Assembly: GCA_965205015.1 (NCBI GenBank)
Contig: OZ242029.1
Coordinates: forward strand, 416,001-480,000
Source of the DNA: Candidatus Poribacteria bacterium
Lineage (GTDB): Bacteria; Poribacteria; WGA-4E; WGA-3G
Direction: 5' to 3'
Length of the DNA stretch: 64,000 nucleotides
In this document: positions 462 to 51,487 of the stretch, piece after piece
Layout: each line of letters opens with the position of its first letter
Position numbering within the stretch: position 1 is the stretch's first letter
Notes under the pieces: generated by a model
Told to the model about the DNA's origin: nothing
What the model saw: the letters and a program-made list of their open reading frames with translations, nothing else
The model's database searches: none
Translations under genes and position numbers: made by a program

Positions 462-1319
462 ATGACACATCGACACATCCTGACATGCCTCTTTTTGCTC
501 GCTTTAATTCCGCTGAGTGCCAAAGCATTCCCACCCGCTTCACCCGCAGGGGGTAACTATTTAATCCTCGATGGGGTGGACGACTATGCGGTTTTAGACT
601 TTAAAACCTTCGGTATCCTCTTACCGAAAGGCACGGACGAATTCACCGTTGAAGCGTGGGTATACCCAACCACACCACTGCCTAACATGGATACACACGC
701 AATGATTCTCAGTCAACAGGTGCGAATGAATGCAGCGGTCGCTGTCGAGGCACGGAGGGACATCAAGAAGGGGGATTTAGTCTTAGCAATGCAAGCACAC
801 ATTACGGTTGTGGGCAGGCTCGCTACGACCCCGTACCATCCCGTAGTACTTGCCCCGAACCAATGGCATCACATCGCTTATCAGGCGGAAGGGAAAGAGA
901 CAGTAACCATCGTTAACGATTTCGTAGGCATCTTACCGCAAAGAACAACACTCGCGCACGATCTCGCAGGATTCAAGCGTCCAAAGGATTTTACACTCGG
1001 AGGATTTGGAAAGAAAGTCAAGTTCCACATCGATCACTTTTGGGGACCTTTTGCGGGATATATTGATGAGGTCCGTATCTCGAGAGTCGCTCGTTACAAG
1101 GTCGGCAAAAAAGGGTTCACGCCGCGCGAAAAGTTCAAGGAGGACCCGAAGACGGTTGCGCTGTGGCATTTTGATGAGCCGCACGGAACACAGACATTTT
1201 CAGATGCCTCGGGACATGCACATCATCTGACGGGTAAAAATGGCGCAAGGACCGGCATCCCACTCGCAGTCGAACCCCACGAAAAACTCACCACAACATG
1301 GGGACGACTTAAGCAATGA
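462..1319 (+). CDS. secreted LamG-like jellyroll protein with TWG C-terminal tail
   Basis: AGGAGA RBS before ATG 462; signal peptide ending AKA; FTVEAWVYP, QWHHIA, GYIDEVRIS, ALWHFDE LamG motifs; ends AVEPHEKLTTTWGRLKQ. Confidence 0.85.
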   Translation: MTHRHILTCLFLLALIPLSAKAFPPASPAGGNYLILDGVDDYAVLDFKTFGILLPKGTDEFTVEAWVYPTTPLPNMDTHAMILSQQVRMNAAVAVEARRDIKKGDLVLAMQAHITVVGRLATTPYHPVVLAPNQWHHIAYQAEGKETVTIVNDFVGILPQRTTLAHDLAGFKRPKDFTLGGFGKKVKFHIDHFWGPFAGYIDEVRISRVARYKVGKKGFTPREKFKEDPKTVALWHFDEPHGTQTFSDASGHAHHLTGKNGARTGIPLAVEPHEKLTTTWGRLKQ

Positions 1320-1364
1320 AATCTCGAAAAAAGCTTTCGTTATGGGTGTATAGGAGGAAGTCTC

Positions 1365-4256
1365 GTGGAAGTAAAAGAAGATGTTCAGTTGATTCACGAC
1401 ATTTTATCAGGCAACGATGATGCCTTCAGCACGTTAGTGCAAAAATATCAGAAGAGTGTTCACGCGCTCGCTTGGCGAAAGATTAGCGATTTTCACTATG
1501 CTGAAGAGATTACGCAGGACACCTTCCTCCAGGCATACAAAAAACTCTCGACCCTCAAAAATCCGCATCATTTTGCTGGGTGGCTGTATGTCATTGCAAA
1601 TCGGCTTTGCATTAACTGGCTCCAAAGGCACAAATCGGCGATGCAATCGCTTGAGGGTACGCCAGTGCGGGAAATCAATCAACTCACTTATGAACGTTAC
1701 ATCTCCGAGGCGCGCGAATCGGAAGCGACCGAACGCCGGTATGAAATCGTCGAAAAACTTCTCGAAAAACTCCCAGAAAGTGAGCGCACAGTGATGACGC
1801 TCTATTACCTCGGTGAGATGACGGCGAAAGAGATAGGCAACTTCTTAGGGGTGTCAGTGAATACGATTAAAAGCCGGCTTCGGCGAGGGCGAGAACGTCT
1901 ACAAGAAGATCAGGAACTCTTAATTCAAGAGGTCTTCAGTGGCGTCCAAATATCGACGGGTCTGAGCCAGAACATCATGCGGCAAGTCGCTGACTTGAAA
2001 CCCACACCCCCGCCGGCTACGAAACCCTTGATTCCATGGCTGGCTTTGGGAACGGCTGCGGTTTTGGTGCTGTTGCTGGTGGGTGCAAGCGATCGATACC
2101 TCACCCGCTTTCAGAAGCCTTATAGTCTCGATGCGGCATCTGAACCGACAATTGAAATCGTTGATGCCCCTATCGTCCTTGATATTGATGTGAAACCGGA
2201 TGTGCGACATCAAGTTGGACGGATTGTATCCAGAAATAAAAATGGCGACACAGGTTTGCAGGCTTCTGAGAGGATCCGAACATCTAATGCCCAAGCGGGT
2301 TCTTCCAAGTTTTCTATTTCACAGTGGACCCAGACAAATGGACCACCGGCGGGTTACATCCGCAATATCTTCGCTACGCCGGAGGAGGCTGTTTATGCTG
2401 TTGCATCGTCAGGACTATACAGATTAACAGAAGACGCGAGCGCTTGGACACACATCGACGGGAGTGTTCCAATTGACAAATCTCTAATGCCGATGGCAGC
2501 TCACGACGGGAACCTTTATATCGTTTCCGCTGACGAGGTATTCACCTCGACGGATCGGGGTGAAACATGGAATACACTCGGTCCTCGACCGAAAGGGGAG
2601 GCTGTCGGAATTCTCATGACGGATGAGGCACAACCCCGCATTACAATGTACCTCGCCCTGAAAGATGAAGGGGTTTTCCGATCAACAGACGGTGGAACGC
2701 ACTGGCAGCCGCTGCGAGATGGATTAACAAGCAAAAAAATCTCCGCAATTGCCGCTGTTGACAACACAGTGTTTGCTGGAACAGAGAACGGACTCTACCG
2801 TCTTGATTCGGGCATCTGGAATAAGTTGCCCGTGGAGACATCACGAGCCGTCTGTTCCTTGACAGTATCTGGAAATAACCTTTATGTTGGAACGGGTTCC
2901 GATCTATTGGTGACATTAACGCCAACAGAAATATATCAAGTCCATCGGGAGACACGGAACACATGGAATCACTGGAATAACAGGTCGTACCCCGTCAAGA
3001 TTTTCCATTCATCTGACTTGGGAGCCTCGTGGACTGAAATAATGGACGGAAGTGAATACAATTATGAGGGTTCACCATCGGGTATAACAGTTTTAGCCGT
3101 AGGTGAAACGCTCTTGGCATTAGGGGTGTATCAATCCCGTTCAGCAGATGGTGGTAAAACGTGGACCAAACTTGGATGGGACGCGAGTTGGTTGAGGTAC
3201 AGTAGCCGCCCCGCTGTAATGGTGAACGAGAGCACGTTTTACAAAACCAGAGGATTCGGGCTTCACCGCACAACAGATGGCGGCGACTCATGGCACCTCT
3301 TTTTGAACGGAATGACAGGAACACTTCTAATTGATTTGGTTGCGTTTAACAACAGGTTATACGCACATTCCGGCTACGAAGTCTATCAATCCTCCGATGC
3401 CGGAGAGTCTTGGAAAAAAGTTCCCGTTGAGGGACAGGAAACCGCTCTCAACCCGAGAATCAAAATCGCTTCTGAGTCAAAGTTCGTGGTTACCGACAAT
3501 ACGCTTTACCTTCTTTCATCTGAAGCAGAAGACTTCCAAATTTTCCGTTTATCCACAGATGGCGATACGCTCATTCCAGTTCAAGGCGTCCCCATTTTTG
3601 ACCGTCAATCCATTTCTTTTGCCATAGCGCGTCTGCAAACGGAAACGGCTACCGCCAGCCGCGATGCGTTCTATGTGGAATACCAAAGAAAACTTTTCAA
3701 ATGGAAACTGGGGGATCCGACGTGGATAAACACGGGATTGGTAGATACAAGTCAAGTGTCCTATAGCGATTACAGAGGTGGATTCAAAATAGCGGTTTCC
3801 GATGAAACCGTCTACGTCGGTCAACGGGACGGACATCTGTTTCAGTCGCTTGATGAAGGGAAAAGTTGGAAAGACATTACATCGAGTTTGCCGCTTCGCT
3901 TCACCCGTTTCAAAGAGGTAACCTTTGTCGGGCAAACGATCTACGTCGCAACAGACAAAGGCACCTTGGTTTCACAGACTGGGGACCACTGGAGCGTTCT
4001 AACCGATGGGGCTGACAGGCGTCCTATCGTAGACAGATTTGCTACAGATGGCACCAAAGTCTACGGCATCGGTGAAGCAGGGGTCTATCATTTAGATGCC
4101 AGTGGCCAATGGACACAGATTTCGTCAAATGTTCCCGATAAAATTCTCTCCCTCGTCGTCAATAATAACAGGCTTTATAGTGTTACGCAACAAGCTGGGA
4201 TGTTTCATATCCCGCTTGAGGCGGATACCATTGCAGAGAGTAGTTCTCGGTATTGA
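1365..4256 (+). CDS. ECF sigma factor fused to a transmembrane helix and a BNR/Asp-box beta-propeller
   Basis: AGGAGG RBS; region 2 (AEEITQDTFLQAY, FAGWLYVIANR) and region 4 (EIGNFLGVSVNTIKSRLRRGR); TM LIPWLALGTAAVLVLLLVGA; seven [ST]xDxGxxW boxes. Confidence 0.9.
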   Translation: MEVKEDVQLIHDILSGNDDAFSTLVQKYQKSVHALAWRKISDFHYAEEITQDTFLQAYKKLSTLKNPHHFAGWLYVIANRLCINWLQRHKSAMQSLEGTPVREINQLTYERYISEARESEATERRYEIVEKLLEKLPESERTVMTLYYLGEMTAKEIGNFLGVSVNTIKSRLRRGRERLQEDQELLIQEVFSGVQISTGLSQNIMRQVADLKPTPPPATKPLIPWLALGTAAVLVLLLVGASDRYLTRFQKPYSLDAASEPTIEIVDAPIVLDIDVKPDVRHQVGRIVSRNKNGDTGLQASERIRTSNAQAGSSKFSISQWTQTNGPPAGYIRNIFATPEEAVYAVASSGLYRLTEDASAWTHIDGSVPIDKSLMPMAAHDGNLYIVSADEVFTSTDRGETWNTLGPRPKGEAVGILMTDEAQPRITMYLALKDEGVFRSTDGGTHWQPLRDGLTSKKISAIAAVDNTVFAGTENGLYRLDSGIWNKLPVETSRAVCSLTVSGNNLYVGTGSDLLVTLTPTEIYQVHRETRNTWNHWNNRSYPVKIFHSSDLGASWTEIMDGSEYNYEGSPSGITVLAVGETLLALGVYQSRSADGGKTWTKLGWDASWLRYSSRPAVMVNESTFYKTRGFGLHRTTDGGDSWHLFLNGMTGTLLIDLVAFNNRLYAHSGYEVYQSSDAGESWKKVPVEGQETALNPRIKIASESKFVVTDNTLYLLSSEAEDFQIFRLSTDGDTLIPVQGVPIFDRQSISFAIARLQTETATASRDAFYVEYQRKLFKWKLGDPTWINTGLVDTSQVSYSDYRGGFKIAVSDETVYVGQRDGHLFQSLDEGKSWKDITSSLPLRFTRFKEVTFVGQTIYVATDKGTLVSQTGDHWSVLTDGADRRPIVDRFATDGTKVYGIGEAGVYHLDASGQWTQISSNVPDKILSLVVNNNRLYSVTQQAGMFHIPLEADTIAESSSRY

Positions 4257-4283: not shown

Positions 4284-5402
4284 ATGAAAACCTATTTGAC
4301 TTTTGGAATCCTAATTCTGTGCGCCTTGTTAGTTATCAACGTTGCCAATCTTGGTGCCGAAGAGAATTGGACGCAGAAAGCAGATATGCCGACACAACGC
4401 TCCAGTTTTGATACCTGTATTGTGAATGAAAAGATATACGCAATCGGGGGCGGGATTGAGGGATTTGGAAACTTATCCGTCTCAACGGTAGAGATGTACG
4501 ATCCGACAACCGATACATGGGAACGAAAGGCGGATATGCCGACCGCCCGTTCTAATGCGTCTGTCTCGGTTGTAGACGGAAAAATATATGCGATTGGTGG
4601 AACGGAACTGAAGAGGTTTGAGATGGATGTCCTTATTCAGGGTGAGTTTAGAAAGGTTAAACAGTGGGAGCCCAAAGAACTTCCAACCGTGGAAATGTAT
4701 GATCCAACGACCGACACATGGATGCAGAAAGCAGACATGCCGACACCCAGAAATACTGGCACTTGTGTCGTGGACGGAAAAATATATGCTATCGGTGGAA
4801 TAGCGTTTAATAATGTTAAGAAGAAAAAACCGTGGCGTTTAGATACCGTGGAAGTCTATGATCCAGCAACAGACACATGGGCGAAAGGAAAGAAAATGAA
4901 CCATGCTCGCGATGGTGCCGCAATCAGTGTAGTAGATGGAAAGATCTACGTCATGGGCGGAACGGGTTGGCCCCAACTTCCAAATCGTCCAGGTCCCTAT
5001 CTCTCCAGCATTGAAGTGTTTAATCCAAAAACGAATCAATGGCGTGACATTGGGGAAATGTCTGAGCCAAAATCAGGTCATTCAGCAAGTGTCATCAACG
5101 GAAAAATTTACGTGATAGGCGGTTTTTTCCGAGGCAATGGGTTAGATACGAAATATTTTAAAACAATCGAAATCTATCACCCTGAAACCGGTCGCTGGAC
5201 ACAGAAACCCGACATGCCGGTTGGCAAATCAGGACATGCGGCTGAAGCCATAAATGGGAAAATCTATATCCTTACCGGAGCAGACCCTGATGAGGTTCCA
5301 TTTGCCACCGTTGAAGTCTATGCCCCAGAAGGGTTCCCTCAGAGCGTCGATCCAACCGGGAAACTTTTCAAAACATGGGGTACCCTTAAGAACATACAGT
5401 AA
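4284..5402 (+). CDS. secreted Kelch-repeat beta-propeller with TWG tail
   Basis: signal peptide; six GKIYAIGG...VEMYDP..DTW repeats; ends SVDPTGKLFKTWGTLKNIQ. Confidence 0.9.
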   Translation: MKTYLTFGILILCALLVINVANLGAEENWTQKADMPTQRSSFDTCIVNEKIYAIGGGIEGFGNLSVSTVEMYDPTTDTWERKADMPTARSNASVSVVDGKIYAIGGTELKRFEMDVLIQGEFRKVKQWEPKELPTVEMYDPTTDTWMQKADMPTPRNTGTCVVDGKIYAIGGIAFNNVKKKKPWRLDTVEVYDPATDTWAKGKKMNHARDGAAISVVDGKIYVMGGTGWPQLPNRPGPYLSSIEVFNPKTNQWRDIGEMSEPKSGHSASVINGKIYVIGGFFRGNGLDTKYFKTIEIYHPETGRWTQKPDMPVGKSGHAAEAINGKIYILTGADPDEVPFATVEVYAPEGFPQSVDPTGKLFKTWGTLKNIQ

Positions 5403-5488
5403 CAGGAAAACTATCTACACACCGCGATGAAATCAAAGCAGAACATTATAACTCACCTTAACATCGGTTCGTTAAGAAGGAGAAATCA

Positions 5489-6634
5489 ATGAGGTTCAAA
5501 ACGTTTCAGTATCTACGATGGGTTGTTGGTTTCGCTGCTGTTGTTCTATTTCATGTAGCCACGGAGAACACTGATGCGGAAAAATGGAAGGTCATCTCCC
5601 AACTTCCAACAGAGAGAACGGGTTTCGCGACCGCAGTCGTTGATAGTAAGATTTATCTTTTCGGTGGCACACTCTTTGAACATGAGCGGGGGGTTCGGCG
5701 TGAAAATGAACCTGGTATTTGGCGGGGTCCTTTTGGGATGTCCTTGGTGGAAGTCTATGATCCACAAACCAACGCTTGGCAGAGACTCGCAGATATGCCG
5801 ACTGCTCGATCCGAACCTCTGACAGCCGTCGTTGATGGCAAGATTTATGTTTTGGCAGGATACGTCGGGAAAGACAACAAGGGAGTGAATCTCAAAAATC
5901 TGAAAGCCGTCGAGATGTACGATCCACAAACCGACATGTGGGTCAAAAAACAGGACATGCCTACCCCCCGCATAGACTTCGGCACTGGTGTAGTGGCTGG
6001 CAAAATTTATGCCATTGGCGGACGTGTCTACTGGAGGGATAGAAAACCTGGGAGTCCAGGACGCATTGATCTCGTGGAAGTCTACGACCCTGCCAGCGAT
6101 ACGTGGACAAAGCGCGCGAAAATGCCAACCAAACGCAATGGCTTCGGAACAGGGGTTGTCAACGATCAGATTTATGCTATCGGGGGGACTGGCTGGCCCC
6201 AAGTAGGCAATCACGGGGGTCCCTATCTTGGAACGATTGAGGTCTATGAACCGAGAATCAACCGATGGACGAAGAGGGCTGACATGCCAAATCCGAGAAC
6301 CGTATTTTCGACAGTTGTTATTTCCGATAAAATCTATCTGATCGGCGGTTCCGATGTGCAAGCGGGGGGTGCTGCGGTGGGTGAGTGGCTTGCCAGCATC
6401 GAAGTGTATGATCCAGCTACCGAGAAATGGCGTGTGGTTTCTGCGGGACCAATCGTAAAGTCGCCATTTGGTGTAACGGCGGTTAATGGTAAGATTTATA
6501 CCTTCGGTGGTTACACAGCAGATTGGGAACTTTCTCCAATCGTCGAAGTCTTTGATACCGGTTTTCGTAATGTCGAGGCGCGTGGAAAACTTCCGACGCG
6601 CTGGGGTGAACTCAAAGCAACACGCCAAAACTAA
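5489..6634 (+). CDS. secreted Kelch-repeat beta-propeller with TWG-like tail
   Basis: AAGGAG RBS; signal-like N-terminus; Kelch repeats; ends NVEARGKLPTRWGELKATRQN. Confidence 0.9.
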   Translation: MRFKTFQYLRWVVGFAAVVLFHVATENTDAEKWKVISQLPTERTGFATAVVDSKIYLFGGTLFEHERGVRRENEPGIWRGPFGMSLVEVYDPQTNAWQRLADMPTARSEPLTAVVDGKIYVLAGYVGKDNKGVNLKNLKAVEMYDPQTDMWVKKQDMPTPRIDFGTGVVAGKIYAIGGRVYWRDRKPGSPGRIDLVEVYDPASDTWTKRAKMPTKRNGFGTGVVNDQIYAIGGTGWPQVGNHGGPYLGTIEVYEPRINRWTKRADMPNPRTVFSTVVISDKIYLIGGSDVQAGGAAVGEWLASIEVYDPATEKWRVVSAGPIVKSPFGVTAVNGKIYTFGGYTADWELSPIVEVFDTGFRNVEARGKLPTRWGELKATRQN

Positions 6635-6824: not shown

Positions 6825-7901
6825 ATGAAAACTTACTTGACCTGCGGAATCCTAATTCTGTGTGCCCTGTTAGTTATCAATGTTGTTAATCTGGTTGCCG
6901 CCGAAGAAAATTGGACGCAGAAAGCAGATATGCCGACACAGCGATCTGATTTTGCTACCTGCATTGTCAATGGAAAAATATACGCTATTGGAGGTGAAGT
7001 TGACAAATTCGGGGACGTATCCATTGCAACAGTAGAGATGTACGACCCGAAAACTGATACATGGACGCAGAAGGCAGATATGCCCACAGCCAGAAGTACC
7101 AGTACCTCCGTCGTCGATGGAAAAATCTACGCCATTGGTGGAGGAAAAACACACAAACGTCGGATTGGTCCCGGTTGGGGATGGGAAACTATAATACTCC
7201 CAACTGTGGAAATGTATGATCCGATTACGGACACGTGGACCCCGAAAGCAGACATGCCTGCGCCAAGAAGTGCCGATACCTGCGTCGTGGGCGGAAAAAT
7301 ATACCTTATCGGTGGCGCGAATAAAAAACAGCATCGATCAGAAATCGTAGATGTGTATGACCCTGCAACTGATACATGGGCAAGAGCCAAAAGCATGAAC
7401 CACGCGCGCTCCGGTGCGGCAATTAGTGTTATGGATGGAAAGATTTACGTCATGGGCGGCACAGGGTGGCCCCAGATTCCATTCCACCCAGGTCCCTTTC
7501 TCTCCAGCATAGAGGTGTATAACCCAAAAACAAATCAATGGCGCGAAATAGGAGATATGCCTGCCGCAAAATCGAGCCATACAGCAAGTGTCATCAATGG
7601 AAAAATTTATGTGATAGGTGGTTTTTTTCGAGGCAATGGGTTAGATCGAAGATATTTTAAAACAATCGAAATCTATCACCCTGAAACCGGTCGCTGGACA
7701 CAGAAACCCGACATGCCGGTCGGCAAATCAGGACATGCGGCTGAAGTCATAAACGGGAAAATTTATATCCTTACCGAAGCAGATCCTGATGATGCCCCGT
7801 TTGCAACCGTTGAAGTCTATGCCCCAGAAGGGTTCCCTCAGAGCGTCGATCCAACCGGGAAACTTTTCAAAACATGGGGTACCCTTAAGAACATACAGTA
7901 A
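6825..7901 (+). CDS. secreted Kelch-repeat protein, close paralog of 4284-5402
   Basis: GGAGG RBS, ATG 6825; near-identical N- and C-termini to 4284-5402; same tail SVDPTGKLFKTWGTLKNIQ. Confidence 0.9.
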   Translation: MKTYLTCGILILCALLVINVVNLVAAEENWTQKADMPTQRSDFATCIVNGKIYAIGGEVDKFGDVSIATVEMYDPKTDTWTQKADMPTARSTSTSVVDGKIYAIGGGKTHKRRIGPGWGWETIILPTVEMYDPITDTWTPKADMPAPRSADTCVVGGKIYLIGGANKKQHRSEIVDVYDPATDTWARAKSMNHARSGAAISVMDGKIYVMGGTGWPQIPFHPGPFLSSIEVYNPKTNQWREIGDMPAAKSSHTASVINGKIYVIGGFFRGNGLDRRYFKTIEIYHPETGRWTQKPDMPVGKSGHAAEVINGKIYILTEADPDDAPFATVEVYAPEGFPQSVDPTGKLFKTWGTLKNIQ

Positions 7902-7906
7902 CAGGT

Positions 7907-7972
7907 GAAGCGGTCGGGAAACTCTCCACACGTTGGGGTGCGTTGAAAATGAAGCACCAAAACCAACCTTAA
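7907..7972 (+). pseudogene. orphan TWG-tail relic of a deleted Kelch gene
   Basis: translates EAVGKLSTRWGALKMKHQNQP*, compare EARGKLPTRWGELKATRQN* of 5489-6634; no gene body upstream. Confidence 0.8.
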
Positions 7973-8208: not shown

Positions 8209-9195
8209 ATGCGAGAAAAGGGTCTACTTGTTTTATGTATGCTAAATGTAGTCGCATTGTGCGCAGGCGTTTGTCCCGTTTTCGCTAAGGCACCCAACAC
8301 AGCAAAAATAGTGTATTCCTCAACCCGCGACGGGAATTGGGAAATCTATACTATGAACACAGACGGCAGTCAGCAAGTGAGATTAACACAAAATTTTGCA
8401 GAGGATTTTACCCCTGTTTGGTCACCTACTGGCGAGGAGATACTTTTTCTATCGGATCGGGACGGAGTTCCTGACCTATACCTGATGGATGCCGATGGGA
8501 AAAATGTTCGACGGGTGTTTAAGAAATCTGCACGTAGAGAACACCCGACCTGGTCACCCGACGGCAAGCAGATTGCTTATGTCCGCAAGTGGTTTATCTA
8601 TATCGCTACACTTGGGAAACAAGAAGAACACCAATTGGTAAACGGCTTCGATCCGACATGGTCACCCGATGGTACCGAGATAGCCTTTGCGAGAGGGGCT
8701 TTCGGAAGCCATCGGTTGACCCTCGTCAACGTTCGGACGGGAAGGCAAAAGCAGGTACTCCCAGAGAATACACTGTCATGGCAGCATTTGCCAGCGTGGT
8801 CTGTGACAGGCGAGCAAATTGCCTTTTCTTGGTTGAATCACGTTCTGCCGAACGGTAAACTTTTTGACCTTGTTGATAAAGAGACCATCTATATTGTGAA
8901 TCGCGACGGTACTGGACTTGCACAAATTGTCTCTGAAGCGGGCAAAGCAGCGATGGATCCCGTTTGGGATCCACGAGGTAATAGCGTTGTTTATGAGCAA
9001 GAAATTGACAATTATTTCCAACTTTTTAAAATTAATCTGGCGAGTCGTGTCCGAACACAACTTACACATATTGCAGTAGGTCCCGGTCGGGGGAATGCAG
9101 ACGCAGACTGGTTTGATCCTATTGTTGCCTTGTCCGTTTCACCGCAACCACAATTGCTAACAACGACGTGGGGAAAAGTAAAGAGAGAAAACTGA
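8209..9195 (+). CDS. secreted TolB-like (PD40) beta-propeller with TWG tail
   Basis: AAGGAG RBS; signal peptide ending VFA; PxWSPDG repeats; ends VSPQPQLLTTTWGKVKREN. Confidence 0.9.
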   Translation: MREKGLLVLCMLNVVALCAGVCPVFAKAPNTAKIVYSSTRDGNWEIYTMNTDGSQQVRLTQNFAEDFTPVWSPTGEEILFLSDRDGVPDLYLMDADGKNVRRVFKKSARREHPTWSPDGKQIAYVRKWFIYIATLGKQEEHQLVNGFDPTWSPDGTEIAFARGAFGSHRLTLVNVRTGRQKQVLPENTLSWQHLPAWSVTGEQIAFSWLNHVLPNGKLFDLVDKETIYIVNRDGTGLAQIVSEAGKAAMDPVWDPRGNSVVYEQEIDNYFQLFKINLASRVRTQLTHIAVGPGRGNADADWFDPIVALSVSPQPQLLTTTWGKVKREN

Positions 9196-9220: not shown

Positions 9221-10180
9221 ATGCGAAAAAAACATCTGTTTGTTTTATGTGTCCTAAGTATCGTCATGTTATGCGCAAACGTTTGTTCGGTCTTTGCCAA
9301 AGCACCCGACACACCGAAAATCGTCTTTACTGGGTGGCGCGGCGACAATCGGGACATCTATCTGATGAATCCGGATGGAAGTGAGCAGGTCAACATTACC
9401 AATCACCGCGCAGATGATGTCTCTCCCATCTGGTCTCCGACAGGCGAACACATCCTTTTCGCCTCTGATCGAGATGGTCCCCGCGACCTGTATTTGATGA
9501 ATCCTGATGGTTCCAATGTGCGGCGCGTTTTTGGGAAATCGGCAACGAGGGGAGGACCGGCCTGGGGTCCCGATGAAAAACAGATCGCCTATGATCACGG
9601 ACCCCCTGGGAACAGGTTCATCTACACCGGAACAATAGACGGTAAGAAAGAAGAACGCATGGCAATTGGAGCACGTCCAACCTGGTCTCCCGACGGCACG
9701 GCAATCGTCTTTACCAGCGGCGCCTTGGGCGAACCGTGGCGCTTCAGTTTACTCAACGTCAAAACGAAAAGGCTAACGTTCTTCCCTTTCCCCAAGGAAC
9801 CCATGTTTGTTCGGGGTCCCGCATGGTCCCCAAGTGGCGACAAACTCGCCTTCTCCTGGCACATTGATGGCTTCAGAGAAGAGGCAATCTACATTGTGAA
9901 CCGAGATGGGACAGATCCGCAAGAAATCGTGGGCGACATTACAACGAGGGCTTCTGATCCGACCTGGTCCCCCGATGGTACCGCACTCCTTTATACACAA
10001 CTTGTTAACAAGAATTTACACATCTTCAAAGTCGCATTGGACGGTGGGAAGCCGGTCCAACTCACCCACGACGGATGGAATTATATGGGCGGTTGGTTTG
10101 ATCCGGCGTATGCCTTGCCCGTCTCACCACAACCACAATTGCTAACAACCCAATGGGGAAACGTAAAGAAAGGAAACTAA
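9221..10180 (+). CDS. secreted TolB-like (PD40) beta-propeller with TWG tail
   Basis: signal peptide; PxWSPDG repeats; ends VSPQPQLLTTQWGNVKKGN. Confidence 0.9.
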   Translation: MRKKHLFVLCVLSIVMLCANVCSVFAKAPDTPKIVFTGWRGDNRDIYLMNPDGSEQVNITNHRADDVSPIWSPTGEHILFASDRDGPRDLYLMNPDGSNVRRVFGKSATRGGPAWGPDEKQIAYDHGPPGNRFIYTGTIDGKKEERMAIGARPTWSPDGTAIVFTSGALGEPWRFSLLNVKTKRLTFFPFPKEPMFVRGPAWSPSGDKLAFSWHIDGFREEAIYIVNRDGTDPQEIVGDITTRASDPTWSPDGTALLYTQLVNKNLHIFKVALDGGKPVQLTHDGWNYMGGWFDPAYALPVSPQPQLLTTQWGNVKKGN

Positions 10181-10205: not shown

Positions 10206-11183
10206 ATGCGAACTCAGTATCTATTTGTTCTATCTGTGCTAAGTGCGGTTCTGTCATGCGTAAGCGTCTGTCCAGTTCTTGCCAAAGCACCCAATACGGC
10301 AAAAATTGCATTCGCGTCATCTCGTGATGGAAATCGTGAAATCTATCTGATGAATCCGGATGGAAGTGAGCAGGTTAATATCACCAATCATCGCGCAAAC
10401 GATATTTATGCAGTTTGGTCGCCAACAGGTGAACACATTCTTTTCGTCTCTGATCGTGAGCAGAAGGAGAAGGGATGGGGGAATTGGGATTTGTATCTCA
10501 TGGAACCAGATGGCTCTAATGTACAAAAGGTGTTTGACAAATGGAAGATACGAGCAAATCCCACATGGTCTCCCGATGGCAAACGATTTGCCTACAGTTA
10601 TGGAGAAATTGGAAACAATTTGCTCTATATTGGCACAATCGATGGAAAAGAGGAAGAGCGTGTGGCGATTGGTTACTCACCGGCATGGTCTCCAGATGGC
10701 ACGCAAATCATCTTTCGCAGCGGTGCCTTGGACAAACCGAGACGTTTCAGTCTACTCCATGTCAAAACGAAAAGACAAACATTCTTCCCTTTCCCCAAGG
10801 AACCAAAATGGGTTCGGGGTCCCGCATGGTCCCCAAGTGGCGATAAACTCGCTTTCTCCTGGCACATTGATGGCTTCAGGGAAGAGGCAATCTACATTGT
10901 GAATCGCGATGGCACAGATCCCCAAGAGATCGTGGGGGCTCTTACAACACGGGCTGGCAGCCCGATCTGGTCTCCAGATGGCACAGAACTCCTATATACA
11001 CAATTTGTTAACAAGAATTTACACATCTTCAAAGTCGCCTTGGACGGCGGGAAACCGGTCCAACTCACCCACGAAGGATGGAATTATAGGGGTAGTTGGT
11101 TTGATCCGGCGTATGCCTTGCCCGTCTCACCACAACCACAGTTGCTAACGACGACGTGGGGAGACGTGAAAAAAGGAAACTGA
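10206..11183 (+). CDS. secreted TolB-like (PD40) beta-propeller with TWG tail
   Basis: GGAGA RBS; signal peptide; 3' part nearly identical to 9221-10180; ends VSPQPQLLTTTWGDVKKGN. Confidence 0.9.
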   Translation: MRTQYLFVLSVLSAVLSCVSVCPVLAKAPNTAKIAFASSRDGNREIYLMNPDGSEQVNITNHRANDIYAVWSPTGEHILFVSDREQKEKGWGNWDLYLMEPDGSNVQKVFDKWKIRANPTWSPDGKRFAYSYGEIGNNLLYIGTIDGKEEERVAIGYSPAWSPDGTQIIFRSGALDKPRRFSLLHVKTKRQTFFPFPKEPKWVRGPAWSPSGDKLAFSWHIDGFREEAIYIVNRDGTDPQEIVGALTTRAGSPIWSPDGTELLYTQFVNKNLHIFKVALDGGKPVQLTHEGWNYRGSWFDPAYALPVSPQPQLLTTTWGDVKKGN

Positions 11184-14537: not shown

Positions 14538-15884
14538 CAGGGGTATTTAGTTTTAAGTTTTGTCACTGTATGAGTTTAACTGCGAGTTTAGGTTTTGCAG
14601 CGAAAAATCGCAGTGTTTCCGCAATTTTTGTGTGTCCGTCAAAGCGTAAGAGAGCCAGGGCAGTGTTGCGTAGGGCAGCCATGACTTGTGGGAGTCTCCC
14701 TGTTCTTGCTTGTGAAGCGTCCTCCCCGAGGACGACATCTCGCACCCAATGGACTTTGTTTTCTATCGTCCAGTGTTGGCGTCGGAGTTTGAGCAAAGTT
14801 TCTGCGGATGCGTCTTGTGGTGTAAGACTCGTGATGCCATACTGCGTCTGGTAGGTAGTCTCGCCTGTTTTGGTATTCTCCCGCTTGGATTGGTATTGAT
14901 ACACTTGTGCGAGTCCTGGCCAGTTGATATAATCCGTCAAGAGTGTGCTTGCTGTTAGCGTGCGTGTGGTGATAAACCCGTGTGATGTTTCAACGTCTGT
15001 GTGGGTATCAAGGTGTGCGTCTGCCTCGGTGTGTAGGTTCTGAAACCGTCGTGCTTGGACGTGTGGTGTGTCTGTCTCCGAAAGCGGTTCAAAGAGTTCG
15101 CGAATGTCGTGATACATCTGTTTGTGATTCTCTTTGACGGGCATTGCATAGTTTGCGTGATATTTGAGAACCTCTTTACAAAAGGTTCTTTGGGTCAAAA
15201 GTGCATCTGTTGTTATGACTTTCCCGGTGACATCAAAGGTTTTCAGAAGTTGCGTTGAGATGGGGATCTCATTTGTTTTTCCACTGACAGCCCGCTGTGT
15301 AAGGGTAATCCCTAACTCATGAGAGACAGCGGAGAGTAAATGTGTGCGGTATCGGGTTTCTGGGTCTTTGGAGCCACATAACTCTTTGCCATCTATCGCC
15401 ACCCCTTGTAAATCCTGTGTTTTCAAAACTTGAAGACTTTCAAGTTTTGAAAACACCCATTTCGTGAGTAAGGCTTCGAGACTCACGACGTCAAGACGCT
15501 TCAAAAGATTATGAAGCGTTCCAGCACACGGGGTCTTCTCTGATTTGAAACCTAACGCTTTTGCCAGGGCCCCTTGATGCCGTGCCCAAGTCGCTATAGA
15601 CGTATACCCTTTATGATTCGACATTACACCGATGACGAGCAGCGCAAGGATAGACCCCAAGTTGTAGCGTTTCCCTTTTTTATGGCGTGGATCCGGAACT
15701 TCTGCTAATATGTCAAGTAAGTGGCAAGAGGAACTTCTTGTCATGATTCACCTCAAAAAATGTGATGGTTTTTTACGGTGAAGTATAGCAGATACAGCGG
15801 GAAAAGTCACGCTGTATCTGTTTATTTTATAATATTAACAGATGTGAAAAATATTACGAAAAAACCGAAAACTGAATACCCCTG
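14538..15884 (-). mobile_element. ISAs1-family insertion sequence
   Basis: 17-bp TIRs CAGGGGTATTTAGTTTT / AAAACTGAATACCCCTG (16/17 match); 10-bp target duplication ACACAGACAC at 14528-14537 and 15885-15894. Confidence 0.95.
14563..15744 (-). CDS. ISAs1-family DDE transposase
   Basis: VPDPR, AIDGK, KTNEIP, TTDAL, VKENH, RQHWTIENKVHWVRDV motifs. Confidence 0.93.
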   Translation of the reverse strand: MTRSSSCHLLDILAEVPDPRHKKGKRYNLGSILALLVIGVMSNHKGYTSIATWARHQGALAKALGFKSEKTPCAGTLHNLLKRLDVVSLEALLTKWVFSKLESLQVLKTQDLQGVAIDGKELCGSKDPETRYRTHLLSAVSHELGITLTQRAVSGKTNEIPISTQLLKTFDVTGKVITTDALLTQRTFCKEVLKYHANYAMPVKENHKQMYHDIRELFEPLSETDTPHVQARRFQNLHTEADAHLDTHTDVETSHGFITTRTLTASTLLTDYINWPGLAQVYQYQSKRENTKTGETTYQTQYGITSLTPQDASAETLLKLRRQHWTIENKVHWVRDVVLGEDASQARTGRLPQVMAALRNTALALLRFDGHTKIAETLRFFAAKPKLAVKLIQ

Positions 15885-19769: not shown

Positions 19770-19895
19770 GGTTACGGAACATGGGTTCGACTTAGAACAG
19801 ACTTTTCTCTTTCCGCTCAACCTGGGGAAATCCGCAGAAACACCCAAGCAAAAACACCTACGAAAACTAATAACTGACAACTTTGGAGAAATACT

Positions 19896-22883: not shown

Positions 22884-24026
22884 ATGAAATTGCTAAGTAA
22901 AAATTTGCTGCTGACGATGGTTTTCGGAGGTTACTTGTTCTGGAACTTGCCATCCACAACACAGGGATTCATCGCGAGGGCTGGCATATTTAACATGCTG
23001 GTGCAAAAAGTGCATGAACCCCAGTGGCGAATCGGCTATAATTTCATCTTTGGCTGTGCTGCCGCCTTCGAGGTAAAGGGAGAAGACAAACTAAAAGCAG
23101 CAATCACCAAGACCCTGCAGGTTTGGATGCAGCCGTTGCGGGAGCGGTACCCGAACAAGGTATTTACCGATGATTTTATCTTCGTGCGGATGCCGGATAT
23201 GAAAGAACGCTTTGATAACAGGGAGGCACGAGAACAGGTGGACCTGCGTATCACCTTCGATTGTAAACCGGCGGTGGTGGGTGGTACTGGTGTCCTCGTT
23301 TCAAGTATAGTGTCTCCAGATGTATATATGCGAGAGGGGACTGACCTTGATAATAACCGTTTTCTCAGCGTTTTTGCCCACGAGTTAGGGCATGCTTTCG
23401 GACTGGCGGATACCTACGTTCGCGGCAATCGGGTGAGCACAGGGGGGTTGACCAAGACCGAAGGCAAGCAACCGTCATCACTCATGGCAGATGCTCATGG
23501 AGTTTTTCGACTGCGTCAGTTCGCTTACCTCAGGGAAGATGACAAAAACGGCATCATCTATCTCTACAAGTACTATCACGAGGACCACCCCGCAGGTGAT
23601 TGTTTTTTCCCTGATTACGTTTCCGTAGAGGCTCGACTTAAGACCCATCAAGCTTGCGAGCCGCGTTACCCGTTAATTTTTGAGGCAAAGCACGGGACCT
23701 CTAAAACTGTGGAGCAGATACTGAAAGATGATCCAACGCTTGATATAAACGCACGGGATGCCAGCGGGTTTACGGCACTGCATCATGCCGTGCAGCAAGG
23801 AAGTGTCGAGAAGGTGAAGGCATTGTTGGCGAAAACGGGCATCAAAGTCAACCTCCTCAACACACACAAGCGTACACCCGCACAACTCGCACGCATCCTC
23901 AAACAGACCCAGATTGCAAAGATGATCGAGGCGCATCCGAGCAGCAAGCACCCCTCGATCGCATGGGACGTAGCACCCAAAGGCAAATTGACGACGACTT
24001 GGGGACACCTCAAAAAGAAATACTGA
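22884..24026 (+). CDS. secreted zinc metalloprotease with ankyrin repeats and TWG tail
   Basis: signal-like N-terminus; HELGHAFGLAD zinc motif with downstream SLM Met-turn; ankyrin DINARDASGFTALHHA and RTPAQLA; ends DVAPKGKLTTTWGHLKKKY. Confidence 0.85.
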   Translation: MKLLSKNLLLTMVFGGYLFWNLPSTTQGFIARAGIFNMLVQKVHEPQWRIGYNFIFGCAAAFEVKGEDKLKAAITKTLQVWMQPLRERYPNKVFTDDFIFVRMPDMKERFDNREAREQVDLRITFDCKPAVVGGTGVLVSSIVSPDVYMREGTDLDNNRFLSVFAHELGHAFGLADTYVRGNRVSTGGLTKTEGKQPSSLMADAHGVFRLRQFAYLREDDKNGIIYLYKYYHEDHPAGDCFFPDYVSVEARLKTHQACEPRYPLIFEAKHGTSKTVEQILKDDPTLDINARDASGFTALHHAVQQGSVEKVKALLAKTGIKVNLLNTHKRTPAQLARILKQTQIAKMIEAHPSSKHPSIAWDVAPKGKLTTTWGHLKKKY

Positions 24027-31785: not shown

Positions 31786-32532
31786 ATGAAAAACCGAATT
31801 TTCTATTATAGCGCGCTCGTTTGCTTACTCATGTTCAGCATTGTCTGTATAGCAAACGCCGCAAACGAATCCTTCGGGGATCCCTTCGAGAAGGGGAAGT
31901 TGCAAAACCCGAATTGGAAATGGCAAAACGAACCCCCGGATTGGGATATCGGGGACACCCGTGAGGATTACCTGTATATTGACAGTGAAACCAACCGAAA
32001 CATCTGGGCATCGGATGAATCCCACTTCCTCTATCAGGAAACCGATGCCGACATGTTTGATGTCGAAACCCATTTCTTTTCCACATGGGATACCGATTCC
32101 GGCGTTAATGGACTTCTCGTCAAAAGTCCGAAAGACAATAACTGGGTCACCATCAAGTTCTGGTCGCGTGATGCGGGGGCTAAAGGGCAACTCCAGTTCC
32201 AAACCCGGGAGGCGGGAGTACCTGGGGGTCCACCCGATCCACCGTGGCGTCCGGAATTTGGTGATACGGAATTGTTCCTCAGGCTCAAAAAAGAGAGAGA
32301 TACTTACACGGCGTGGTATAAAATGGACGCAAACGACGATTGGACAGATTTCGGCGCAGGCGACTTTAAGATGACACCCCCGCTGTGGCTCGGAATTTAT
32401 GCCGGTGTCGCCTCAGGGGTCGGTTCCTTAGAGGTCGAATACGAGTATTTCCAAGACAATGTGACACCTTGGGGGGTTGAACCTGAAGGCAAAGTGGCGA
32501 CAACCTGGGGCATCCTGAAGTCACGCTATTAG
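31786..32532 (+). CDS. secreted concanavalin/jellyroll-like protein with TWG tail
   Basis: AAGGAG RBS; signal peptide ending ANA; LRLKKERDTYTAWY, LGIYA; ends GVEPEGKVATTWGILKSRY. Confidence 0.75.
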   Translation: MKNRIFYYSALVCLLMFSIVCIANAANESFGDPFEKGKLQNPNWKWQNEPPDWDIGDTREDYLYIDSETNRNIWASDESHFLYQETDADMFDVETHFFSTWDTDSGVNGLLVKSPKDNNWVTIKFWSRDAGAKGQLQFQTREAGVPGGPPDPPWRPEFGDTELFLRLKKERDTYTAWYKMDANDDWTDFGAGDFKMTPPLWLGIYAGVASGVGSLEVEYEYFQDNVTPWGVEPEGKVATTWGILKSRY

Positions 32533-35342: not shown

Positions 35343-35507
35343 TGAACACGGAGATGGTCCCCAATGGCATTTAGCGATTTCAAGTCAATTTCTTTAGACT
35401 GTGCTTGCCTTTTGTAGCATAGTCTGTTAGACTGTGCCTGCCTTTGGATGCACAAACTGAATGAAGGAGACGCAACGCCTACTCCGAAAAAGAAGGAGAC
35501 GAACCCA

Positions 35508-38471
35508 ATGAAGAAGCTACAACTCTTAGCATTCGCCCTATGGATAGCACTCACCTTACCCACCGCTTATGCCCAGAATCTCTCGCAACAGCACTTACCC
35601 GAAGGTGCGAAGATGCGCCTCGGTAAAGGTGAAACATGGGCGTTTCAGCTTTCACCCGATGGCACGCGGCTGAAGGTGGCAAGTGGTTTAGGGATCTGGC
35701 ATTACGATACACAGACAGGTCAAGAAGTTACTGTGGTTCCCTGGTCGAAAAATATTAGTATAGGTCGTGCTGTATTCAGTCCAGATGGTAGGGTACTTGC
35801 GAGTATTCATTATGGCAGGACTGAGGTTCAGCTATGGGATGTGGCGACGGGGGCACTTCTCAAGACACTCACGGGGCACACGGGTAGGGATCTCGCTAGT
35901 ATAACGTTCAGTCCGGATGGTACCACCCTGGCGAGTGGGAGTTATGATAAGACGGTTAGTCTGTGGGATGTGGCGACGGGGGCACTTCTCAAGACACTCA
36001 CTGGACACACGTATCCTGTCTTTGGTGTAACGTTCAGTCCGGATGGCAGGATACTGGCAAGTAGTGGAGGAGGGTACGACCGAACAGTTCGTCTGTGGGA
36101 TGTAGAGACGGGGGCACTTCTTAAGACACTCATTGGACATACGAGGGGTGTCTTTGATGTATCGTTCAGTCCGGATGGTAGGATACTGGCGAGTGGGAGT
36201 GAGGATAGCACGGTTCGTCTGTGGGATGTGGCGACGGGGGCACTTCTCAAGACACTCACTGAACATACGGGTAAGGTCTCGGGGGTAGCGTTCAGTCCAG
36301 ATGGTACCACTCTGGCGAGCAGTGGCGCGAGCAGTGGCGCTTGGACCGACAGCACGGTTCAGCTATGGGATGTGGCGACGGGGGCACTTCTCAAGACACT
36401 CACTGAACATACGGGTAAGGTCGGGAGGGTAGCGTTCAGTCCAGATGGTACCACCCTGGTGGGTCTGGGTTCGACGGTTCAGCTATGGGATGTGGCGACG
36501 GGGGCACTTCTCAAGACACTCACTGAGCATACGGGTGCGGTCCGGAGAGTAGCATTCAGTCCGGATGGCAGGACACTGGCAAGTGCGCTTTGGGATGGCA
36601 CGGTTTGTCTATGGGATGTAGGGACGGGGGCACTTCTCAAAACCCTCACTGGGCATACGGGTAATGTCTTTAGTGTAGCCTTCAGCCCGGATGGTCAGAT
36701 GCTGGCGAGTGGGAGTCTGGAGGAGATTCGTTTCTGGGATGTAGGGACGGGGGCACTTCTCAAAACCCTCACTGAGCCTACGGGTAATGTCCTCAGCGTA
36801 GCCTTCAGCCCGGATGGTCAGATGCTGGCGAGTGGGGGTAATGATACGGTGATTCGTTTGTGGGATACGCGGACAGGGGCCCTCCGAAAAACGTTTATGG
36901 GGCACACGGCAACGGTCATGAGTATGGCGTTCAGTCCGGATGGGACAACGCTGGGGAGTACGGGTCTGGACAACACGGTTCGGCTGTGGGATGTGCGGAC
37001 AGGAATACCCCGTGAGAGGCTCACAGAGCCTAAAGTCATTCCCTGTGCGTATGGCCAAAGTGTGGTGTTCAGTCCCGATGGCACCACCTTCGCAAATAAT
37101 GTGAATGGTGGTGCAGTTCAGCTGTGGGATGTGCACAGTGGTGAACTCCAACGGACATTTAACGCTTCGGCAGGGACTCCGCCTGCCTTCAGTCCCGATA
37201 GTGGCTTCCTTGCTATCGGAAATCACTCCGATAGGGTCTTGCTTATGGATCTTGCCATAGGTGAGGCATGGGAACCCCTCGGATATCACACAGGGGTTAA
37301 CGACCTGGCGTTCAGTCCGGATGGCAGGACACTGGCGAGTGGAGGTAATACTGGCACGATCCTTCTATGGGATGCCACACCTTACACCTCACAACCTTTC
37401 ACTGTTGAGACGGATAGCATAACAGTAGTGCCGGAGGTGCCTGTTGGTGGCGATGTTGCGAGTGTGAGTCTCTCGCCTGCGGCGGTATGGTCTGGCACTA
37501 TAGGGGACCAAGTGACGGTGAACGCTAACATCGCAAAGGGTGTAGATGTGAGAGGGTATCAGGTGGAACTCACTTTTGAGACGACTGCGCTGCGGTTTGT
37601 GTCAAGTGTGGATGCTGGGTATCTGCCTACGGGTGCTTTCCAAGTGCTGCCCGTGGTGAATAACAATCGCGTCACGTTTGGTGCGACCTCTCTGCAAGAG
37701 AGCAGTGAAGGGGAGGGAACGCTTGCGGCATTCACGTTTGAAGTGCTTGCTGCCTCGCCCGCGATGCCGAGATTAGTTGATGTGAAACTCACCGACAGCG
37801 ACGCGAACTTCTTAGCCGTGCGGATTGAAACTCCGGGCGTGCCGGATTCCGCGCCCCTCACAGGAGACGTGAACGGTGATGGTGTGATAAACCTTGAAGA
37901 TATGGAGGCAGCGACAACGCGTCTGGGGCAAAGGGGTGAGAACACGGCGGATATGAACGGCGATGGCGTTGTGGATGCTGCGGATTTAGTGCTCATCGCA
38001 GCAGCGATAGAAGCCGCGACGGCTGCCCCATCCCTGCATCCATCAGTTGTTACTGAACTGTTCACTGCGACAGCGGTGCGTCAGTGGTTGTCGCTTGCGC
38101 GGGCACAAGGTCTCACGGGTGGGGAATATCAGCGTGGGTTTCTGCTGCTGGAGCAACTCCTCTTAATACTCACGCCGAAAGAGACGATGTTGTTAGCAAA
38201 CTATCCCAATCCCTTCAATCCTGAGACGTGGATCCCATATCACCTCTCTGAACCTGCGGATGTCCGTATTTCAATTTATGCTGCCGATGGTCGATTGGTT
38301 CGGATGCTAACCGTAGGGCATCAGGGTGCGGGTATCTATGAATCTCGGGGTCGCGCGGCGTATTGGGATGGCAGAAATGCGTTGGGTGAAACTGTGGCGA
38401 GTGGTGTCTATTTCTACACCTTCACCACTGGTGAGTTCACCGCCACCCGAAAACTGTTGATACGCAAGTAA
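35508..38471 (+). CDS. secreted WD40-repeat protein with cohesin, dockerin and FlgD-Ig/T9SS-CTD-like C-terminal domain
   Basis: AAGGAG RBS; signal peptide ending AYA; many FSPDG..LASG..V.LWDV repeats; GDVNGDG/ADMNGDG dockerin; NYPNPFNPETWIPY..WDGRN..VASGVYFY..TRKLLIRK. Confidence 0.92.
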   Translation: MKKLQLLAFALWIALTLPTAYAQNLSQQHLPEGAKMRLGKGETWAFQLSPDGTRLKVASGLGIWHYDTQTGQEVTVVPWSKNISIGRAVFSPDGRVLASIHYGRTEVQLWDVATGALLKTLTGHTGRDLASITFSPDGTTLASGSYDKTVSLWDVATGALLKTLTGHTYPVFGVTFSPDGRILASSGGGYDRTVRLWDVETGALLKTLIGHTRGVFDVSFSPDGRILASGSEDSTVRLWDVATGALLKTLTEHTGKVSGVAFSPDGTTLASSGASSGAWTDSTVQLWDVATGALLKTLTEHTGKVGRVAFSPDGTTLVGLGSTVQLWDVATGALLKTLTEHTGAVRRVAFSPDGRTLASALWDGTVCLWDVGTGALLKTLTGHTGNVFSVAFSPDGQMLASGSLEEIRFWDVGTGALLKTLTEPTGNVLSVAFSPDGQMLASGGNDTVIRLWDTRTGALRKTFMGHTATVMSMAFSPDGTTLGSTGLDNTVRLWDVRTGIPRERLTEPKVIPCAYGQSVVFSPDGTTFANNVNGGAVQLWDVHSGELQRTFNASAGTPPAFSPDSGFLAIGNHSDRVLLMDLAIGEAWEPLGYHTGVNDLAFSPDGRTLASGGNTGTILLWDATPYTSQPFTVETDSITVVPEVPVGGDVASVSLSPAAVWSGTIGDQVTVNANIAKGVDVRGYQVELTFETTALRFVSSVDAGYLPTGAFQVLPVVNNNRVTFGATSLQESSEGEGTLAAFTFEVLAASPAMPRLVDVKLTDSDANFLAVRIETPGVPDSAPLTGDVNGDGVINLEDMEAATTRLGQRGENTADMNGDGVVDAADLVLIAAAIEAATAAPSLHPSVVTELFTATAVRQWLSLARAQGLTGGEYQRGFLLLEQLLLILTPKETMLLANYPNPFNPETWIPYHLSEPADVRISIYAADGRLVRMLTVGHQGAGIYESRGRAAYWDGRNALGETVASGVYFYTFTTGEFTATRKLLIRK
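35830..36865 (+). repeat. highly similar intragenic WD40 nucleotide repeats (about 120-135 bp units)
   Basis: TGGGATGTGGCGACGGGGGCACTTCTCAAGACACTCAC recurs with few changes about eight times. Confidence 0.9.
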
Positions 38472-47766: not shown

Positions 47767-47808
47767 GCGGCAGGAACGATCCCCTGAACTTAAATTGGAG
47801 AACACATT

Positions 47809-48828: not shown

Positions 48829-48903
48829 CGTATAGCATAGACAGAGATTTAGTTCTTTCGTAACCTTGGTCCTTGAGCAAACTCTTTGTATTGGAGATAA
48901 ACA

Positions 48904-49110: not shown

Positions 49111-49122
49111 GTGGAGGCAGAC

Positions 49123-49353: not shown

Positions 49354-49364
49354 TAGGGATTTGA

Positions 49365-49739: not shown

Positions 49740-49761
49740 GTTGAAACCCAGCAGAAACATT

Positions 49762-50658: not shown

Positions 50659-50728
50659 AGGTAAACCAAATCCAGAAATAAAATAAGCGATTGCTAATTG
50701 ATGAAATTAGCAACGCAGGAGGAACACC

Positions 50729-51487
50729 ATGAAAGTTCTGTTTTTTGTGACCCTCATTATCAGCTTGGTGGTACCCGGCACACTTTGGGCGAAAAATCTG
50801 GCACTGGAGTTAGATGGCGCGACGGCTATCGAAGTCCCAAATAGCGACAGCCTAAATCCTAAAACCGCGATAACGATAGAGGCGTGGATGAACATGAGCA
50901 AACCCGTCGGTGAATGCCTTGCAAAGGACTGGGGCGGTCAAAGGGATTACATCTTTCCAGAAATTGTCCAAAATGGAAACGGATTACGGTTTGTCCTCTG
51001 GCCCGGCACAAAAATTCTGGATGTCCCTGGATTGGAGCCGAACAAATGGCAACATGTCGCTGGGGTCTGGGATGGTAAAGAGATGCGGACATATATTGAT
51101 GGGGAGGAGAAGGGGGCCGCACCTTTTGGAGCAAAGGAATTAGCCGCAACCGACGCTTCGCTGTATATCGGTGTCGGTGACAGTAAAAGTTGGTTCTGTA
51201 CGGGGTCGATTGATGAAATCCGTATCTGGGAAGTCGCTCGGACCGAAGAAGAGATTAACGAGTTCATGATGAAGGTCCTCAACGGCGATGAAGCGGGATT
51301 AAACGCACACTACACTTTCGATGAAGGCAACGCCAACGATAATACCAAAAACGGCAACGATGGCGACGGTGGGTTTGGAAAACCGAACTACATTGATGTT
51401 ACCAACGCCTTGGATCTTGAGCCGCTTTCTGTTGACCCAGAAGATAAATTGACGACAACATGGGCGTGGGTGAAACGAACCCGATAA
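50729..51487 (+). CDS. secreted LamG protein with TWG-like tail
   Basis: AGGAGG RBS; signal peptide; ITIEAW, KWQHVAGVWDG, GSIDEIRIW; ends SVDPEDKLTTTWAWVKRTR. Confidence 0.9.
   Translation: MKVLFFVTLIISLVVPGTLWAKNLALELDGATAIEVPNSDSLNPKTAITIEAWMNMSKPVGECLAKDWGGQRDYIFPEIVQNGNGLRFVLWPGTKILDVPGLEPNKWQHVAGVWDGKEMRTYIDGEEKGAAPFGAKELAATDASLYIGVGDSKSWFCTGSIDEIRIWEVARTEEEINEFMMKVLNGDEAGLNAHYTFDEGNANDNTKNGNDGDGGFGKPNYIDVTNALDLEPLSVDPEDKLTTTWAWVKRTR

Follow-up and report, generated by a model that had tools for sequence, protein, structure and literature searches.

Why should ten exported proteins of different folds, encoded within a single stretch of bacterial DNA, all end with the same short sequence? 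The question is raised by 64,000 nucleotides from Candidatus Poribacteria bacterium (GenBank assembly GCA_965205015.1, contig OZ242029.1, positions 416,001 to 480,000 of the forward strand). The whole of this stretch was analysed and is called the window here. Ten open reading frames (ORFs) of the window end in L-A-V-[ED]-P-x-x-K-L-[TA]-T-T-W-G-x-[LIV]-K plus 1–5 residues. A first-pass annotation of the window, made from the sequence alone, had described these ten ORFs with their starts and with tails ending 1–5 residues before the stop codon, and all of them were confirmed. The folds assigned there are upheld by Pfam (Laminin_G_3, Kelch, PD40, ankyrin with a weak metallopeptidase match, and GH43_C2). 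The N-terminal signal peptides, which had been described as well, are recognizable by eye in all ten proteins; a crude predictor accepted nine and missed the ORF starting at 22884, whose N-terminus is still signal-peptide-like. Judged from sequence comparison, the tail is a real, phylum-wide and uncatalogued C-terminal tag of the sorting-signal kind. Our preferred reading, to which we assign a probability of roughly 0.5, is that the tail would act as an address tag for the mature C-terminus, read by a partner in the cell envelope that holds or attaches the protein.

The tail consists of about 17 conserved residues, and 1–8 further residues, most of them basic or polar, separate these from the stop codon. 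Its consensus was counted from 114 tail carriers, with positions given relative to the tryptophan. The W itself and the final K at +4 are invariant in 114/114 tails. Upstream of the W, V is seen at -10 in 107/114, E or D occupies -9, and -8 is P in 74/114 or A in 24/114. K at -5 and L at -4 are conserved in 106 and 105 of the 114 tails, respectively, and the three positions from -3 to -1 are T or A, then T, then T. Past the W, the pattern continues with G at +1 in 108/114 and with L, I, V or M at +3. The residues beyond the final K are polar and rich in Arg, and the last residue of the protein is R, N, Q or K in 81/114 and F or Y in 10/114.

The position of the tail is strictly terminal, as had been expected in the first-pass annotation. 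The strict pattern K-[LF]-T-T-T-W-G-x-[LIVMF]-K was back-translated and scanned against a collection holding one genome per prokaryotic species. Of 136 distinct strict matches, 135 have the stop codon 1–8 residues past the final K, and the commonest distance is 3. A hidden Markov model (HMM) of 21 columns was built from the 114 tails, and 40 of its matches were sampled down the ranking of one complete genome. The stop codon lies 1–7 residues past the final K in 39 of these 40, and the lone exception resembles a gene fragment. One further sampled match is an orphan tail with a stop codon 14 residues upstream.

The constraint on the tail acts at the protein level, because synonymous codons differ between the copies. 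Across the window copies, the conserved residues are encoded variously by ACC/ACA/ACG, CTC/CTT/TTG, GGA/GGT/GGC and AAG/AAA. The possibility that the tail is a DNA repeat was rejected on this ground.

Tail carriers are predominantly proteins with a signal peptide. A home-made signal-peptide test was applied to frames that were closed, not shadowed and at least 200 residues long, taken from loci no shorter than 3 kb; duplicates and 5'-open frames had been dropped. The test was passed by 109 of the 114 tail carriers versus 52 of 179 other ORFs at the same loci, and the N-termini of the five failing carriers are signal-peptide-like by eye. The co-occurrence of tail and signal peptide claimed for the window extends to the larger set. 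A lipobox-like site is present in 8/114 carriers. The median open frame of tail-only proteins is 279.5 residues.

The passengers are diverse. The 114 carriers match 47 Pfam families (E ≤ 0.001), and the commonest passenger is Laminin_G_3, found on 59 of them. Next in rank are CBM9, PD40, F5/8 type C, Kelch, 3-keto-disaccharide hydrolase, pentaxin, LTD and ankyrin. A homologue search with a 41-residue alignment returned only proteins named "LamG domain-containing protein" or "hypothetical protein". In the AlphaFold model of a typical LamG carrier (mean predicted local distance difference test score, pLDDT, of 87.9), the jelly roll is complete by residue 234. The tail is a terminal extension of this model with a pLDDT of about 68–70, drawn as a continuation of the terminal helix. 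The model of the window LamG protein starting at 50729 has a mean pLDDT of 57.7 and is too poor to use. Since the LamG jelly roll is complete before the tail begins and the tail is carried by many folds, the tail is not a strand of each fold. This reading, which the first-pass annotation had named among the results that would refute its proposal, is ruled out by the LamG model and the fold diversity.

How widely is the tail distributed? The strict pattern is found at at least 132 loci, and 122 of those listed are labelled Poribacteria. Among the other listed loci, six are from four metagenome-assembled genomes (MAGs) named "uncultured bacterium", and the three of these MAGs that were tested carry more than 100 tails each. 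Two are on one contig (JAPPIL010000222.1; loci L018 and L019) of a "Pseudomonadota" MAG of 1.9 Mb, which has 5 tail matches in its whole genome. This contig is probably a misbinned Poribacteria contig. The list also includes one Synechococcus MAG and one Clostridia MAG. Their matches look like chance; one is 45 residues from the stop codon, and the other is in a frame of 12 residues.

The core pattern T-T-W-G-x-[LIVMF]-K is present in 120 of 120 Poribacteria genomes searched, and no tail-free genome was found among them. The number of copies is 15–96 in 113 of these genomes, compared with 0–1 for a reversed-pattern control. Of the seven genomes with low counts, the five lowest contain variant tails (K-L-A-S-Q-W-G-S-L-K, or tails with W-A) and have 20–90 HMM matches at E ≤ 1. 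Cyanobacteria, the phylum of the Synechococcus MAG, were used as a control: 11 of 61 genomes have a single match to the core pattern and none has more, which corresponds to the rate of the control. Per-genome counts with the HMM are lower bounds, as 150 candidates were scored in each. They are at least 147 and at least 149 in two complete genomes at E ≤ 10, and at least 106, at least 112 and at least 149 in three further genomes at E ≤ 0.001. Tail genes are often arranged in tandem arrays, as in genome G001 with eight consecutive LamG paralogues. Within the range of these searches, the tail is specific to one phylum, Poribacteria. Because all 120 genomes carry it, presence or absence within the phylum cannot point to the machinery. 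Three IMG/VR contigs (L186, L187 and L188) each contain a gene of the LamG type whose product starts with a hydrophobic segment and ends in a perfect tail, 1 residue before the stop codon. These contigs are candidates for phages of Poribacteria or for misfiled fragments.

The same genomes contain another class of C-terminal signal, the C-terminal domain (CTD) of the type IX secretion system (T9SS). In known T9SS recognition, a folded domain is used, and removal of the CTD is the known job of PorU in Bacteroidota. Five Poribacteria genomes (G001, G002, G005, G017 and G019) have 53–115 type A CTDs each, and the listed CTD proteins are mostly longer than 600 residues. CTDs were noted in Poribacteria in a 2014 single-cell study, which found no Por structural genes (PMC3909097).

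The tail and the CTD can occur in one protein. An FG-GAP/ASPIC protein (L151:1077–3035) contains a full tail and, six residues on, a complete type A CTD. The 120 Poribacteria genomes were searched for this tandem, defined as the tail core, a gap of 2–12 residues and the start of a CTD. It is present in 67 of the 120 genomes with 1–6 copies each, and the reversed control gave 0. The spacer is exactly six residues in all but two of the matches listed. The passengers of the tandem are WD40, GSDH and FG-GAP/ASPIC (L151, L174–L185), the codons differ between copies, and the tail is placed about 90 codons from the stop codon. As the tail and the CTD are both maintained in one protein, they probably act at different steps; in our reading, they would be separate modules, jointly under selection. 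The tandem favours a role of the tail at the mature C-terminus, which could be that of an anchor, a dock or an attachment site. If the CTD were removed, the protein would end almost as the tail-only proteins do.

These observations can be put together as follows. The tag is carried by Sec-exported proteins, which would mostly be small lectin-like proteins (LamG/concanavalin-like, CBM9, discoidin, pentraxin) or beta-propellers (Kelch, PD40). It would act after Sec export, at a step separate from T9SS CTD recognition, where a conserved putative partner in the cell envelope reads it. The mature C-terminus would thereby be marked for retention at the envelope or the cell surface. Retention might be achieved by docking on a receptor, or by processing and attachment through an extra PorU-like or PorV-like paralogue, and such extra paralogues are the obvious candidate readers of the tag. 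A bolder version can also be speculated, which we consider rather improbable. The tail might be a minimal linear T9SS-linked attachment signal read by an extra PorU-like/PorV-like pair. Exposed natively or through removal of the CTD, the tag would fix more than 100 lectin-like or propeller proteins per cell as a phylum-specific "lectin coat". The first-pass annotation had gone as far as a candidate sorting system. Its tag part stands, as the tail is terminal, linked to signal peptides, shared by unrelated folds and selected at the protein level. The recognition machinery remains putative, and the tail can be called a tag but falls short of a proven "system".

Several points weigh against the address-tag reading. 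Candidate readers do exist and speak in its favour, as 4–9 PorV-like matches, at least two PorU-like proteins (about 1700–2200 residues) and a single SprA-like protein (about 2200 residues) are encoded in each of the five genomes, but all of them score below the curated cut-offs. The GldM model gave zero matches, in a search whose controls were silent as well. The neighbourhoods of 80 tail loci contain no obvious machinery gene. When 238 non-tail ORFs from tail loci were clustered, only Gfo/Idh/MocA oxidoreductases, TPR proteins, FG-GAP/ASPIC proteins and extracytoplasmic function (ECF) sigma/anti-sigma genes were obtained. The tandem form is rare, with 0–6 copies per genome versus 53–115 CTDs, and could be a special case. 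Most sampled CTD proteins have a stretch of the L-[TI]-P-K-E-T-A-L-L-P type before the CTD, not the tail. Among 20 CTD matches sampled in one genome, 17 of which have the local start motif, one has a degenerate tail-like stretch. The tail-only proteins have no recognized outer-membrane route, so they may be periplasmic, and surface anchoring would then be wrong for them. Finally, the signal-peptide test is a heuristic and not SignalP.

Two further observations concern T9SS-related genes. Some PorV-like genes adjoin PorU-like genes or giant CTD proteins (for example, L146–L150). The GldK model gave 2–78 matches per genome, which cover only the C-terminal half of the model and resemble a generic domain, presumably of the FGE-sulfatase type.

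Other explanations of the tail have to be weighed against the address tag. The tail might be a stand-alone outer-membrane translocation signal, either a minimal third class of T9SS signal read by a PorV-like paralogue or the signal of another translocon, which would move small folded proteins out of the periplasm. Diverse passengers that share a signal peptide and a conserved C-terminal tag fit the classic pattern of a secretion signal, there are more PorV-like and PorU-like paralogues than one CTD class would seem to need, and the occurrence of small tail-only proteins next to large CTD proteins resembles a division of labour. The tandem is difficult to reconcile with this explanation. Tail and full type A CTD are present in one protein with a near-invariant spacer and under selection in 67 of the 120 genomes, whereas two redundant signals for one step are not expected to persist. 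Besides, profile comparison shows no similarity between tail and CTD, and 17 residues cannot form the folded domain used in known T9SS recognition. We therefore consider a translocation signal doubtful. The first-pass annotation had proposed a recognition peptide for a translocon, a processing protease or a docking protein. The retention of the tail before type A CTDs argues against a mere alternative outer-membrane translocation signal and favours a dock, an anchor or an attachment site. If the tail were instead a structural or self-association element, such as a terminal strand or helix stabilizing the passenger or linking subunits, its richness in strand-forming residues (L-T-T-T-W) would be explained, and the confident LamG model indeed draws it as a continuation of the terminal helix. 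However, the same tail is found on 47 Pfam families of quite different architecture, and the LamG core is complete without the tail, whose pLDDT is only about 68–70. The tail also occurs between passenger and CTD, and 3' ends carrying it have apparently been exchanged among paralogues. A structural role is thus unlikely.

Poribacteria live as symbionts of sponges and have many eukaryote-like repeat proteins (PMC3909097), and the carriers include ankyrin, Kelch and lectin-like domains. These facts would suit a host-facing short linear motif, recognized by a sponge receptor or matrix component. Yet some carrier MAGs have isolate names suggesting deep water or sediment (L034 and L042; the habitat is taken from the name only), and the invariance of the tail across the phylum and many host species fits a bacterial reader better, which makes a host-facing motif quite improbable. 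The fixed place of the motif near stop codons might also suggest a nucleic-acid element or a nascent-peptide element causing translation arrest at gene ends. This is already largely refuted and deserves almost no credence, as synonymous positions vary freely, the distance to the stop codon ranges over 1–8 codons, and the motif is also an internal module six residues before the CTD, about 90 codons from the stop codon. The address tag for the mature C-terminus is the explanation retained here.

The window itself illustrates how the tail genes are organized. When all six frames were scanned for the core W-[GA]-x-[VLIM]-K, 13 matches were obtained: the ten tails, one orphan tail and two chance-like sites, one at 49564 in a frame of 14 residues and the other at 61290, internal and on the minus strand. 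By a rough composition estimate, about 3 matches are expected by chance in the approximately 128,000 six-frame residues. All ten tail genes are on the plus strand. The first, at 462..1319, encodes a LamG-type exported protein (Laminin_G_3) with its tail at about 1251–1316, as identified by Pfam and the tail scan. Three Kelch propellers follow. The gene at 4284..5402 encodes a signal peptide and a tail and has a degenerate second tail 3' of its stop codon; the gene at 5489..6634 has a signal peptide and the variant tail K-L-P-T-R-W-G-E-L-K; and the gene at 6825..7901 is a paralogue with a tail. Next are three PD40/TolB-like propellers, the first of which (8209..9195) has a signal peptide and a variant tail with Q-L-L-T-T-T-W-G, while its paralogues at 9221..10180 and 10206..11183 also carry tails. 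More distant are an ankyrin-repeat protein with a weak zinc-metallopeptidase match, a signal peptide and a tail (22884..24026), a concanavalin-like (GH43_C2) jelly-roll protein with a signal peptide and a tail (31786..32532), and a LamG protein (Laminin_G_3) with a signal peptide and a W-A variant tail (50729..51487). A WD40 protein at 35448..38471, on the plus strand, has an ordinary T9SS type A C-terminal domain without the tail and illustrates the second C-terminal signal class of this genome.

The Kelch genes show traces of change at their 3' ends. The genes at 4284–5402 and 6825–7901 are 80% identical overall, yet their last ~90 nucleotides, including the working tail, are identical. This suggests that the 3' end was replaced by recombination between the paralogues. 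A decayed tail copy with a 12-nucleotide deletion lies at 5403–5465, 3' of the gene at 4284–5402. Directly past the stop codon of the gene at 6825–7901, an orphan second tail is seen in another frame of the plus strand (~7889..7972), probably left over from an older C-terminus. Orphan or fragment tails are present in a second genome too (loci L209 and L210).

The hemB-hemL stretch of the window is 86–91% identical at the nucleotide level to the Poribacteria MAG containing locus L111 and 82–83% identical to another, which places the window in Poribacteria. Two of the ten window tail proteins have orthologues with the same tails in these MAGs (loci L111 and L063), and the one at L063 is the orthologue of the ankyrin protein at 22884..24026. 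At 1365–4256, between the LamG tail gene and the Kelch/PD40 tail genes, an ECF sigma factor is fused in one frame to a BNR/sortilin-type propeller, and ECF sigma/anti-sigma genes adjoin tail genes in several other loci. Between the array of tail genes and the heme-biosynthesis genes, the minus strand encodes a DDE transposase at 14563–15744 (DDE_Tnp_1 with its associated N-terminal domain). The intergenic stretch 19821–19866, between hemB and hemL, is seen in dozens of copies per Poribacteria genome with 85–100% identity and is probably part of a poribacterial repeat.

Short C-terminal sorting tags have led to envelope machinery before, as with sortases, exosortases, rhombosortases and the T9SS attachment complex. 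The tag described here marks at least 100 exported proteins per genome across an uncultured phylum that is dominant in many sponge microbiomes. Among the marked proteins are lectin-like and eukaryote-like repeat proteins, which are believed to establish contacts with glycans and with the host. Much of the exported proteome of Poribacteria could be delimited with an HMM of the tag, which would also provide a bait for its reader. The tandem of tail and CTD offers a testable link to a secretion system that, in the 2014 study, is reported without structural genes in this phylum (PMC3909097). If the T9SS-linked attachment reading is true, type IX secretion biology would gain its first short linear peptide signal.

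How does the tail compare with known sorting systems? The first-pass annotation knew no name for it, and this holds for the sources searched: no Pfam or NCBIfam model covers the tail, and literature searches gave no description of the tail or of a poribacterial T9SS. PEP-CTERM, LPXTG and GlyGly-CTERM resemble the tail in being short, lineage-restricted C-terminal tags on diverse proteins with signal peptides, and PEP-CTERM shares with it the V-[ED]-P signature and a basic end. Unlike these three, the tail has 13 polar residues between the motif and the basic end and no hydrophobic span, as had been stated for the window copies. The exosortase family PF09721 (EpsH) is found in 0 of the five Poribacteria genomes, in a search in which the control genome, Methanocaldococcus, was matched, and the exosortase route was rejected on this result. 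No NCBIfam sorting-signal model matches the tail, and no search was aimed at sortase or rhombosortase genes.

The outer-membrane beta-signal of beta-barrel proteins, which has a terminal aromatic residue, is likewise a short strand-like C-terminal motif of envelope proteins. In contrast, an aromatic end (F/Y) is seen in only 10/114 tails, and the passengers of the tail have soluble lectin-like and propeller folds. The dockerin-cohesin pair, in which the dockerin is a folded module that measures about 70 residues and binds calcium, could be considered parallel to the tail in that one common C-terminal module is attached to varied carbohydrate-binding or enzymatic passengers, possibly for a shared scaffold. 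This parallel is a functional analogy only, and no cohesin-like receptor was found here.

A further comparison is with the T9SS CTD of the same genomes. None of the ten tail proteins matches TIGR04183 (NCBIfam, E ≤ 1) or PF18962 (Por_Secre_tail; Pfam, E ≤ 0.1), while the WD40 protein at 35448–38471, used as the positive control, matches the T9SS type A domain with 35.4 bits against a cut-off of 23. The possibility that the tail is a truncated CTD was rejected, as hhalign comparison of the tail with the local CTD alignment gave a probability of 0.2% and one aligned column. Tail and T9SS CTD are alike in being C-terminal signals of Sec-exported proteins of many folds, with copy numbers per genome in the dozens to hundreds. 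A CTD folds into a beta-sandwich of roughly 70–100 residues, and the local CTDs measure about 90 residues from the first conserved motif to the stop codon, whereas the tail has about 17 residues (plus 1–8) and is far shorter, in agreement with the earlier description. The tail sits on small proteins, and it coexists with the T9SS CTD rather than replacing it.

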